Positions 29,760-31,669 of a stretch of 64,000 nucleotides of DNA are shown in pieces (position 1 is the first letter of the stretch; each line of letters begins with the position of its first letter). The stretch comes from Candidatus Latescibacterota bacterium (GTDB lineage: Bacteria; Latescibacterota; UBA2968). The notes beneath the pieces are model-generated. The model was given only the letters and a program-made list of their open reading frames with translations, did no database searches and was not told the origin of the DNA. The stretch is taken from positions 2,944,001 through 3,008,000 of the forward strand of contig OZ242320.1 in NCBI GenBank assembly GCA_965208125.1, in the 5' to 3' direction. The position numbers were made by a program, and so were the translations under genes.

Positions 29760-29798
29760 AGGTTGATACTACACACAACATTCACGAAAGGATTTGCT

Positions 29799-30572
29799 AT
29801 GTTTTTGTACGGGATTCGCAATGCGAGTCTGAATATGGATTGGGGGAAAGACGCTTTTGCCACAGCAGGGGATATTGGGTTTGATGGGGTGGAGATTGTG
29901 CTGCGAGAGGAGGACCGGTTGGATTGGCTTTTGAGTGCTGCGGGTCGGGAGGAGGTTGGGAGGTGGGTTCAGGAGACGGGTGCGCAAGCGTGTTCTATTA
30001 GTTTTGCCCTGTTTCGAGAATACAAGGGAAATGAGGAAGATGAGGCTGTGCGCGACCGCGTGGTGGATCTTGTGCAAAAGGCGATTCGCGCATGTAAGGG
30101 GATGGGGGGTGTCGGTATTTTGCTTCCGTATTTCGATGCGGAGAATCTCGATATGTCGAGCGCGCATGCAGAATTGTTGATTGAGGATATGAAGCGATGC
30201 GCCCCTATCGCTGAAGACGAGGGTATTAAGGTTGCTCTGGAGACGAGCTTTTCTCCGGAATTGTTGAGGACGATTTGCGATGGCGTGGGGTCTGAGATGG
30301 TGGGGGTGTATCAAGATACGGCTAATGCGCTGCAATACGGGTACGATTCGGTCGATATGCTCGTTACGTTACCTGAACACACACAATTGATTCATATTAA
30401 AGATACACGGCGTTCAGATCTGGGCGAGGGCGATGTGGATTTTCCCGCGTGTCGAGATGCGATTGCACAGATCGGTTATGAGGGTTGGCTGATTTTTGAA
30501 ACGCCAGGGGGTGCTGATCCCGTGGCATCGGGTAAGAAAAATTTGGCGTTTGCAAAAGAGATGTTTGGGTAG
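29799..30572 (+). CDS. Sugar phosphate isomerase/epimerase (TIM barrel)
   Basis: GFDGVE, ALET, YQDTAN, IHIKD, LGEGDVDF, GYEGWLIFE. Confidence 0.85.
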   Translation: MFLYGIRNASLNMDWGKDAFATAGDIGFDGVEIVLREEDRLDWLLSAAGREEVGRWVQETGAQACSISFALFREYKGNEEDEAVRDRVVDLVQKAIRACKGMGGVGILLPYFDAENLDMSSAHAELLIEDMKRCAPIAEDEGIKVALETSFSPELLRTICDGVGSEMVGVYQDTANALQYGYDSVDMLVTLPEHTQLIHIKDTRRSDLGEGDVDFPACRDAIAQIGYEGWLIFETPGGADPVASGKKNLAFAKEMFG

Positions 30573-30574
30573 GC

Positions 30575-30661
30575 TGGCAGAGGGTGAGGGAATCGAACCC
30601 TATGCGGTTGCCCGCACCACCGACCAATGTCAGGCGGCCCACCTTGAACCGTTCACCCCCT
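30575..30661 (-). ncRNA. Allo-tRNA-like cloverleaf RNA (9/3 or 8/4 branch, long V-arm, CCA end) with a 4-nt loop replacing the anticodon loop
   Basis: AGGGGGTGA-A-CGGTTC(AAGGT)GGGCCG-C-CTGAC(ATTG)GTCGG-TG-GTGCGG(GCAA)CCGCAT-A-GGG(TTCGATT)CCC-TCACCCTCT-G-CCA; all stems pair fully (WC or G-U). Confidence 0.8.
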
Positions 30662-30697
30662 ACCTATTTTGACAAAACTGCACGTTCAAGGGTTTCT

Positions 30698-31669
30698 TCA
30701 AAGATGAGGACGCAGTTCACCCAGGGATTGTTCCCCAGGTTGGATATATTCTACTGCTGGGCTTTCGACGCGTCCATAGGCATTCCACACTTTGAATCCG
30801 AGTAAAGATAGGAGATCAGACGATGCCTCGGCGAGGACTTCGGGTGCCGTGCCCACGGTAAAATTTTCCTGTGGACGGAATTGAGGTCCGCAGAATGTGG
30901 TGAGTATGGCCCAGCGCAGTTGATCGCTTATATTGGCTCCCGTGCCGTGCCAGATGCGTCCGTCGAGGAATCCAACTGTGCCGGCTGGACCTTCGAGGGC
31001 GACTGTTTCAGTGGCGTTGTCGTCGGGATTGTCTGGGCGTCGTCCCCACAGGTGGCTGCCGGGAACGATGCGGGTGCCGCCGTTTTCTGCTGTGAAGTCG
31101 CCGATCATCCATACTACGTTGATGACGACGCGGGGCCAGATGGATGCGGTATCGGGTTCGTCTGTTTGCTCGCGGCTGATAGAGCCTGCGGGTAAATGCG
31201 TTCGGTCTGCGCGCGTTGGCATGGGCATCCACCACTGATCTGTGTGCAGGCGCATGGGAACGCCACCGGGTTTGGCGATGTTGGCCGAATGGCTCGATAG
31301 CAAATAATCATTGCCCAGTGCGTGATCTATGATGTTGCGAACCCCTGAGTGTAATAGCATGTCTTGAAATACCCAACCTTTGTTGATTAGCATCCACACG
31401 CGCTGGTTGACGCCTCCTGCCGATTGTGTAAACGCCCCTGCGCGTACCTGCCCTGTTTTATTTTTAAAATCCCCCCAGTTTTGTTTTGCACCTCCGTCTT
31501 CAAATGCAAGTCCGTGTTGTTTTTCGGCAAGGGCCTGTTCTTTTAGACGGGTTTTTATTTTTGAGAGGTCTTTTGCATTGAGCGCGTTGGCGAGCAGGCC
31601 ATAACCACAGGTGTCGAGTTGTGTTTTGACCTGTGCGAGGTCTTCGGTTGGTTGTGGAAGTTCAGACAT
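30698..31669 (-). CDS. PhyH-family Fe(II)/2OG dioxygenase
   Basis: LHTDQ (HxD), DFTAENGGTRIVPGSH, DGRIWHGTGAN. Confidence 0.9.
   Translation of the reverse strand: MSELPQPTEDLAQVKTQLDTCGYGLLANALNAKDLSKIKTRLKEQALAEKQHGLAFEDGGAKQNWGDFKNKTGQVRAGAFTQSAGGVNQRVWMLINKGWVFQDMLLHSGVRNIIDHALGNDYLLSSHSANIAKPGGVPMRLHTDQWWMPMPTRADRTHLPAGSISREQTDEPDTASIWPRVVINVVWMIGDFTAENGGTRIVPGSHLWGRRPDNPDDNATETVALEGPAGTVGFLDGRIWHGTGANISDQLRWAILTTFCGPQFRPQENFTVGTAPEVLAEASSDLLSLLGFKVWNAYGRVESPAVEYIQPGEQSLGELRPHL

Follow-up and report, generated by a model that had tools for sequence, protein, structure and literature searches.

The locus and the fold of the RNA

The DNA studied here, called the window below, is a stretch of 64,000 nucleotides (nt) from a Candidatus Latescibacterota bacterium (assembly GCA_965208125.1, contig OZ242320.1, positions 2,944,001 to 3,008,000), and positions without a genome or locus label are numbered along the whole of it. 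On its minus strand, an 87-nt sequence at 30575-30661 corresponds to a tRNA-shaped RNA of the allo-tRNA kind that lacks an anticodon. It is referred to as the element or, within the family described below, as type A. The element starts 36 nt past the stop of a PhyH-family dioxygenase gene, and its 3′ end is 2 nt from the stop of a xylose-isomerase-like TIM-barrel gene (Table 1). The host genome (G000) is a single contig of 5.75 Mb with 51% G+C. It contains 49 ordinary tRNA genes, a genuine selenocysteine tRNA (tRNA-Sec; G000:1005361-1005454, 70.1 bits with the Rfam model RF01852) and a transfer-messenger RNA (tmRNA) called by ARAGORN at 3508611-3508995. The CCA end is genomically encoded in 43 of these 49 tRNAs, so the encoded CCA of the element matches the habit of the genome.

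The minimum free energy (MFE) structure of the minus-strand sequence is a cloverleaf with a 9-base-pair (bp) acceptor stem, a D-stem of 6-7 bp, a third arm in which a 5-bp stem surrounds the four nucleotides AUUG (30628-30625), a long variable arm (V-arm) of 6 bp with a GCAA loop, and a 3-bp T-stem (GGG/CCC) with the loop UUCGAUU, followed by the discriminator G and CCA. A preliminary description, made from the letters alone, had claimed a complete cloverleaf between convergent genes carrying G3-U70, a long V-arm, G73 and an encoded CCA, and both the sequence and the MFE fold bear it out. The cloverleaf includes the G3:U70 pair, and each of its five pairs that are not Watson-Crick is a G-U on the minus strand, again as described. 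Because these five wobble pairs are G-U only on that strand, selection appears to act on the minus-strand RNA. The folding energy is unremarkable (z = -2.0; 11 of 200 shuffles equal it) and taken alone gives weak support; it is the conservation and covariation that set the element apart from a chance fold.

Table 1. Position of the element, its parts and its two neighbours in the window (R1 is the covariance model introduced with the family; ORF, open reading frame).
Feature	Position	Strand	Basis or remark
Allo-tRNA-like RNA gene, type A; complete cloverleaf with encoded CCA	30575..30661	-	Sequence; MFE fold; RF01852, 37.8 bits; own model R1, 112.4 bits; orthologs in 17/20
Acceptor 5′ strand, RNA positions 1-8; G3 at 30659	30654..30661	-	Pairs 1-8 paired 100%
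Connector AA in the 8/4 reading, RNA positions 9-10	30653-30652	-	Position 9 constant A while 75 varies
D-arm: tRNA-Sec-like 6-bp stem, 4-5-nt loop with invariant GG (G19, G20)	30635..30651	-	6 pairs, 100% paired, 3 changing on both sides
Anticodon-equivalent arm: 5-bp stem and 4-nt loop AUUG, without anticodon	30620..30633	-	Loop of 4 nt in 18/18 genomes
Long variable arm: 6-bp stem, GCAA (GYAA) tetraloop	30602..30617	-	6 pairs, 100% paired, 2 varying on one side
T-arm in the 8/4 reading: A61-U75 plus GGG/CCC, 7-nt loop UUCGAUU	30587..30601	-	61:75 covariation in the family; UUC.A invariant
Acceptor 3′ strand: U70 at 30581, discriminator G at 30578, CCA at 30577-30575	30575..30586	-	Invariant in the type A alignment
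Upstream box, 36 nt; possible promoter or leader	30662..30697	-	Accompanies the first array gene despite differing upstream genes (G005, G016, G001)
PhyH-family dioxygenase ORF	30698-31669	-	Pfam scan; co-oriented with the RNA
Xylose-isomerase-like TIM-barrel ORF	29763-30572	+	Convergent with the RNA

Conservation and covariation within the genus

A BLAST search covered 61 related genomes, 20 of them other genomes of the same genus. Full-length orthologs with 92-100% identity were found in 17 of these 20, and three public Latescibacterota records hold elements identical to those of G009, G008 and G004/G014 (the latter two being one sequence). The orthologs usually lie between the PhyH and the TIM-barrel gene, with three exceptions. 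In G005 the PhyH gene is missing and an MFS gene is found upstream; in G001 a SASA esterase gene is upstream; in G016 a SASA esterase gene is upstream and a TnpB gene downstream. This TnpB gene (OrfB_IS605 / Cas12f1-like TNB; L025:1738-3063 (+)) begins about 150 nt downstream and takes the place of the usual neighbour. Over 12 syntenic loci (66 pairs), mean pairwise identity fell from 94.3% in the element to 91.8% in the last 300 nt of the PhyH gene and 87.4% in the upstream box. The elements of G001 and G016 are 94-98% identical, compared with 76-80% for a control protein.

The loop of the third arm has four nucleotides in all 18 genomes (AUUG in 13, ACUG in four, AUAU in one) and also in contigs from the RNA libraries of two further studies (sequencing runs X16 and X20). 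The covariation alignment held 17 sequences, 15 of them distinct, so that the 29 pairs gave 435 cells. All 435 were paired, compared with 44.6-54.7% in controls with slid partners. Four pairs changed on both sides; in 500 shuffles the pairing was never matched, and the number of compensatory pairs was matched once. The acceptor pair 7:77 was U-A in eight, C-G in five and U-G in two of the 15 distinct sequences, over several species. Within the short stem, the pairs 30:41 (U-G/C-G/U-A) and 33:38 (C-G/U-G) varied and remained paired. The D-loop GG and the T-loop UUC.A were invariant in the type A alignment. The G020 ortholog (L033:1457-1570 (-)) measures 114 nt, with a 27-nt hairpin-capable insertion in the T-loop and the rest intact, and scores 94.3 bits with R1.

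These data bear on the possibility that the element is a decaying allo-tRNA pseudogene, or an artefact in which assembly removed three nucleotides from an anticodon loop. The AUUG loop could be derived by a small deletion from the CAUUCUGG-type loop of neighbouring paralogs, and allo-tRNA pseudogenes are described in the passages of Mukai et al. (2017; PMC5389517) considered here. An assembly deletion is excluded because the same loop length recurs in 18 independent assemblies and in the contigs of two further studies, and no close relative has a normal 7-nt loop. Decay is ruled out by the intact pairing with its compensatory changes, there being no broken pair in the 435 cells, and by a conservation above that of the adjacent coding sequence. 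The reading is thus largely refuted and is the least probable of those considered, and the earlier view that selection on structure, not decay, has shaped the sequence stands.

The acceptor branch

In type A, U75 (window position 30587) can pair with A9, giving the 9/3 branch of the MFE fold, or with A61 (30601), giving an 8/4 branch. The choice was examined in a family set of 45 distinct sequences anchored from the 3′ end, four of which are imperfectly anchored (one T-loop insertion, one shortened partial match and two register shifts). A standard pair 61:75 is present in 43 of the 45 (A-U 28, G-C 6, U-A 5, C-G 2, G-U 2), and both unpaired cases are among the imperfectly anchored rows. Position 9 is a constant A, and 9:75 can pair in 31 of the 45. 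Because 61:75 covaries across the family while position 9 stays A, the family is most likely 8/4 with a two-base AA connector, a reading better supported than 9/3. The preliminary description had put 9/3 first and 8/4 (A30601-T30587) as the alternative; the former remains the MFE fold, and the latter is the one sustained by the covariation.

Detection by tRNA models and class membership

As had been anticipated, standard scanners miss this RNA. ARAGORN called no tRNA or tmRNA gene in the window, and no Rfam family reached its gathering score there, canonical tRNA (clan CL00001) included. With a relaxed threshold, the sole meaningful match was a full-length one to the tRNA-Sec model RF01852, at 37.8 bits against a cut-off of 47 (E = 2.4e-6 for 241 nt, 1.4e-5 genome-wide). 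The element is not a tRNA-Sec, its score being under the gathering cut-off and a UCA anticodon being absent, nor a tmRNA, as its 87 nt hold no reading frame and the tmRNA called by ARAGORN lies elsewhere in the genome. Several features are those of the allo-tRNAs. The 12-bp acceptor branch is split 8/4 or 9/3 and not 7/5, a tRNA-Sec-like D-arm (6 bp, 4-5-nt loop) is combined with a long V-arm (6 bp, GYAA), and G84 (equivalent to G73) and G3:U81 (equivalent to G3:U70) are invariant in the 17 aligned sequences. In allo-tRNAs the discriminator is G73 or U73, a Ser identity feature, with G3:U70 for Ala as an optional addition. Their anticodon arm, a 7-nt loop on a longer-than-canonical stem, is missing here and is replaced in 18 of 18 genomes by the 5-bp stem and 4-nt loop. 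Because the defining anticodon arm is absent, we use the name allo-tRNA-like and not allo-tRNA proper.

A family with a variable third arm

A covariance model (R1) built from element sequences was used to find family members. They have in common the acceptor sequence, CCA, D-arm, V-arm and T-arm, and differ in the third arm. With the anchoring described above, G3:U70 was present in 42 of the 45 distinct sequences; two have A3:U70 and one is a partial match. At the same locus in other species, one to three genes form tandem arrays with spacers of about 20 nt, and one RNA-library contig holds two tandem copies. The third-arm loops in the family measure 4, 6/8, 8-9 and 10-12 nt. The tetraloop form comprises type A and one G013 paralog. 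A second form has a 6- or 8-nt loop (CAUUCUGG), and a third a 12-nt A/C-rich loop, (A/G)GCAAAACACAA, which is conserved between species and has related loops of 9-10 nt in other genera. A further form reaches 133 nt with a long insertion. Paralogs with the 12-nt loop, called type B, were located at L024:1388-1480 (-), L023:1390-1482 (-), L031:1608-1700 (-), L034:1501-1595 (-) and L036:1451-1543 (+). Their loop is nearly invariant across species, which suggests that it is recognised in a sequence-specific manner; another genus has related GCAACACAAA(A/G) loops.

A second member was found in the host genome at G000:C1:4145575-4145680 (-), equal to L002:1501-1606 (-), about 105 nt long. It has the same acceptor end, an 11-bp V-arm and a stem with tandem G·A/A·G pairs closing an 8-nt loop (CUUCCAAA). 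It is kept in at least 12 genomes of the genus, in some with a 9-nt loop, and could be an expanded-loop decoder or another non-decoding form. The loop AUUCCAAA on the metagenome contig L198 resembles that of this second member. No canonical stem with a 7-nt loop was seen among the Latescibacterota family members inspected. A member on the metagenome contig L197 (3614-3708 (-)) has the same acceptor end and a possible 7-nt loop CUUCAAA, which contains a UCA triplet and is flanked by a G·G mismatch, so that it could be an opal reader; it stands in tandem with another irregular member.

It is very improbable that type A itself is a tRNA that decodes through an unconventional loop, editing or splicing, or that the sequence serves chiefly at the DNA level, for example as an integrase attachment (att) site. 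The 8-9-nt loops of other family members could in principle decode, and tRNA genes are common integration sites. With a conserved pair closing it, a loop of 4 nt has no room to display an anticodon triplet, and no such insertion editing is known in bacteria. No 3′-half repeats flank an island, the nearby matches to positions 45-87 in relatives being full tandem paralogs, and the G-U pairs argue for selection on the RNA strand.

The distribution of the family is narrow. When 151 evenly sampled genomes of the phylum were searched (threshold E <= 1e-6), matches occurred only in the family of the host (f1), in 19 of 29 genomes, and in none of 121 genomes from thirteen other families. The BLAST search also found members in one genus of a neighbouring family (g10, both of two genomes), and type A was seen only in the genus of the host. 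A pattern scan of JGI metagenomes gave three contigs with tandem arrays and irregular loops, and the scan of viral contigs gave no match. A 3′-half pattern scan of genome contigs gave at least 120 loci; among the matches listed, most were tRNA-Ser and Acidobacteria genes of the allo-tRNA type called by ARAGORN. The G030 member lies between a HepT-like (HEPN toxin) gene, L034:939-1409 (+), and an AAA_14/DUF4143 ATPase gene, L034:1667-3025 (-). This is the sole neighbourhood of toxin-antitoxin type among the contexts examined.

The upstream box and the sequencing runs

The upstream box fills the whole 36-nt gap after the PhyH stop. It contains an invariant CAG.TTTGTCAA and, whatever the context, stands ahead of the first array gene. 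Its core, CTTGA, resembles the -35 element of the ordinary tRNA promoters of the host. In three species, four nucleotides (AGAT) are inserted directly before the 5′ end of the RNA.

A search of sequencing runs listed 24 runs, 20 of which contained part of the window and none half of its words. Some DNA runs in this listing had shares of 0.25-0.35. In the RNA-library runs compared (X15, X16, X18 and X20), contigs were 90-95% identical. These RNA-library runs are labelled as sponge or marine metagenomes, except X20, which has a coded organism label. Stretches left uncovered in X15 and X18 carry no weight. No primer-binding-site-like complement of the 3′ 16 nt of the element exists in the host genome at <=2 mismatches, outside the two allo-like genes. 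An exact 14-nt copy of the arm occurs once, at G000:2046588, and similar stretches lie at 585205 and 866372; all are in unrelated sequence without a tRNA fold.

Proposed role and alternatives

We propose that the element is a functional gene for a tRNA-shaped, non-decoding, allo-tRNA-like small RNA that would be charged by alanyl-tRNA synthetase (AlaRS) and/or seryl-tRNA synthetase (SerRS) and would act outside decoding, a reading to which we give an even chance. On structural grounds the RNA cannot decode, its anticodon loop having been lost. Selection has retained the acceptor stem with G3:U70, G73 and CCA, the elbow of D-loop GG and T-loop, the tRNA-Sec-like D-stem and the V-arm; the third arm, which would face the mRNA, varies freely between paralogs. 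The conserved surfaces are those used by RNase P and the CCA enzyme, namely the acceptor/T-arm and the elbow, and, for EF-Tu, the 12-bp branch. The RNA would be made and end-processed like a tRNA, then recognised by AlaRS through G3:U70 and/or by SerRS through the V-arm and G73. Away from codons, it might serve as a carrier of Ala or Ser, or as a ligand tying up tRNA-binding proteins. Processing, charging and role are what we infer from the observations above. Given the conserved acceptor-side surfaces and the charging of G3:U70 allo-tRNAs in E. coli, an RNA that is processed and charged and unable to decode is the most likely product of the gene. On the whole the preliminary description is partly supported: its structural claims were right, with 8/4 now preferred over 9/3.

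Several observations weigh against the proposal. The element is absent from two complete genomes of the genus (G010 and G018) and is dispensable there. Three of the four compensatory pairs each depend on one sequence, two of them on the G013 paralog, whose D-stem is wholly different, and one on G009. A sigma-70 scan found no canonical promoter, its one weak site being inside the PhyH gene, and no canonical -10 element stands at a workable spacing from the CTTGA core. The contigs from X16 (566 nt) and X20 (1104 nt) bridge the element and both convergent genes, so that DNA carry-over or read-through is possible; as they show no strand, ends or level, they are not evidence of transcription. The neighbours vary between loci and are mostly metabolic, and Pfam scans of 29 flanking ORFs at 12 loci (six of these ORFs without a family) and of eight ORFs of the window revealed no recurrent neighbour. 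The host genome has one SerRS, with its gene near G000:2217403-2217723, one AlaRS, with its gene near G000:4021098-4022726, and no dedicated synthetase paralog, and no dedicated partner adjoins the RNA. DUF2156 genes were found in 53 of the 61 relatives, including genera without the RNA, with no signal of co-occurrence.

The host genome also has one SmpB, one NFACT_N protein (RqcH-like), one weak GNAT/Acetyltransf_6 match and one standalone DUF2156. The standalone DUF2156 / LPG_synthase_C gene, with the fold of aminoacyl-tRNA-dependent transferases (L205:2866-3744 (-), equal to G000:C1:1161365-1162243), is lined up with a BpsA_C polyamine-synthase-like gene, and a further PhyH dioxygenase is its neighbour. 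As DUF2156 occurs in these relatives regardless of the RNA, it is not specifically linked to it.

The missing promoter also fits a cis-acting 3′ element of the upstream operon, which would end, stabilise or mark the PhyH/MFS mRNA for RNase P/Z, or a bidirectional terminator. The RNA shares its strand with PhyH and follows the stop of that gene by 36 nt, its 3′ end is separated by 2 nt from the convergent gene's stop, and the upstream gene is co-oriented in every context seen. However, the RNA and its upstream box stand behind three different genes, PhyH, MFS (G005) and SASA (G001, G016), and the gene is multiplied in tandem with tRNA-like spacers. A terminator would need neither G3:U70 and CCA nor the T-loop and D-loop GG, yet all are invariant. 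We consider a cis-acting element improbable.

The chief competing reading is an RNA that never carries an amino acid and acts as a regulator or decoy, titrating a tRNA-binding protein (an aminoacyl-tRNA synthetase, EF-Tu, SelA, RNase P or the CCA enzyme) or a tRNA-targeting toxin or defence nuclease; we regard it as possible, if doubtful. The size and composition of the arrays (one to three genes) turn over fast between close species, which is common for conflict-related loci, and members lie beside the HepT-like toxin and AAA_14/DUF4143 genes in G030 and beside TnpB in G016. Allo-tRNA genes near toxin-antitoxin systems and a translation-inactive allo-tRNA(UAU) figure in the parts of Mukai et al. 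2017 compared here (PMC5389517). The D-arm has the tRNA-Sec form, and identity elements for the Sec-tRNA synthesis apparatus are reported in (9/3) allo-tRNAs. However, toxin or mobile genes occur in only two of about 14 contexts examined, the neighbours being metabolic here and mostly elsewhere, and synteny of the locus extends over the genus. Lacking an anticodon loop, the RNA is unlikely to be a decoy for anticodon nucleases, one of the roles suggested at the outset, and aminoacylation is the simplest account of the strictly kept G3:U70, G73 and CCA.

Extending the proposal of a charged, non-decoding RNA to the whole family, we tentatively suggest that this lineage of uncultured Latescibacterota keeps a set of aminoacylatable 8/4 allo-tRNA-like RNAs with an exchangeable anticodon arm (tetraloop, 8-9-nt loop or conserved A/C-rich 12-nt loop). 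The tetraloop member could then be a natural "anticodon-less tRNA", charged with Ala and/or Ser and possibly converted by the Sec machinery, that delivers or sequesters an aminoacyl group outside codon-directed translation.

Comparison with known systems

The tRNA-like domain of tmRNA shares with the element G3:U70, CCA, the T-arm and the lack of an anticodon; it accepts Ala and is a ligand of EF-Tu. Unlike the element, which is a complete 87-nt cloverleaf, tmRNA depends on SmpB, has no D-stem, and contains pseudoknots and an mRNA-like domain. Fem-type transferases use charged non-proteinogenic tRNA isoacceptors outside normal decoding. YrlA, a bacterial Y RNA and tRNA mimic, forms part of a larger RNA that binds Ro60, and it has no CCA end that could be aminoacylated. 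The Fem isoacceptors and tRNA-Other of Bacillus cereus have a 7-nt anticodon loop and a 7/5 architecture, and no such transferase link was found here. According to the mention of it in Mukai et al. 2017 (PMC5389517), tRNA-Other is likewise charged and has a role outside normal decoding. The tRNA-like module of YrlA has no anticodon loop in the account we drew on (bioRxiv 10.1101/312249) and is likened to the element by description only.

The closest relatives are the allo-tRNAs with 8/4 and 9/3 branches (Mukai et al. 2017, Nucleic Acids Res 45:2776; PMC5389517). As presented in the sections of that paper considered here, they were discovered as sub-threshold matches to the tRNA-Sec model, and they share with the element the 12-bp branch, the long tRNA-Sec-like D-stem with its small loop, the V-arm, G73 and, in some, G3:U70. 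In E. coli, members with G3:U70 were charged and took part in translation, with Ala inserted, and Ser too when G73 was present. An allo-tRNA uniting G3:U70 and G73 with a long V-arm, as highlighted in the preliminary description, is therefore not new. They differ from the element in having anticodons, which cover 35 codons, and many are active in translation; the element has a 4-nt loop. Their hosts in the 2017 main text are Clostridia, Proteobacteria and Acidobacteria, whereas the element is from Latescibacterota. A later paper gives raw short reads from soil or marine metagenomes as the source of the 9/3 allo-tRNAs.

That work and reviews, in the parts compared here, also describe translation-inactive members and irregular allo-tRNA-like polycistrons, suggested to be regulatory RNAs. 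The inactive allo-tRNA(UAU) and these polycistrons share with our family the tandem arrangement and a suspected non-translational role, some being chargeable and unused in translation (PMC5389517). They have anticodon triplets, stem-destabilising mutations or extra loops, and links to toxin-antitoxin systems or transposons; the element, by contrast, has intact covarying stems, a tetraloop and a syntenic locus among metabolic genes. Our literature search found no description of a genomically encoded loop-less allo-tRNA, although the 2017 supplementary figures, which lay outside the comparison, may show one; the one passage on an "anticodon-less tRNA" concerned nuclease cleavage products. The tetraloop form, conserved and covarying genus-wide, the modular third arm of the family, and the host lineage with its complete genomes appear to be new. 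Complete genomes and a phylum unnamed in the 2017 main text are now linked to allo-tRNA-like genes. The family offers substrates for studying what SerRS, AlaRS, EF-Tu and SelA do with RNAs of this kind, and the scaffold is of practical interest because, as the later paper reports, allo-tRNAs serve as chassis for genetic-code expansion. The well-studied cellular tRNAs all present an anticodon, with tmRNA as the classic chargeable exception, and beside these the element would offer a clear natural example of a tRNA scaffold retained for a non-decoding purpose.

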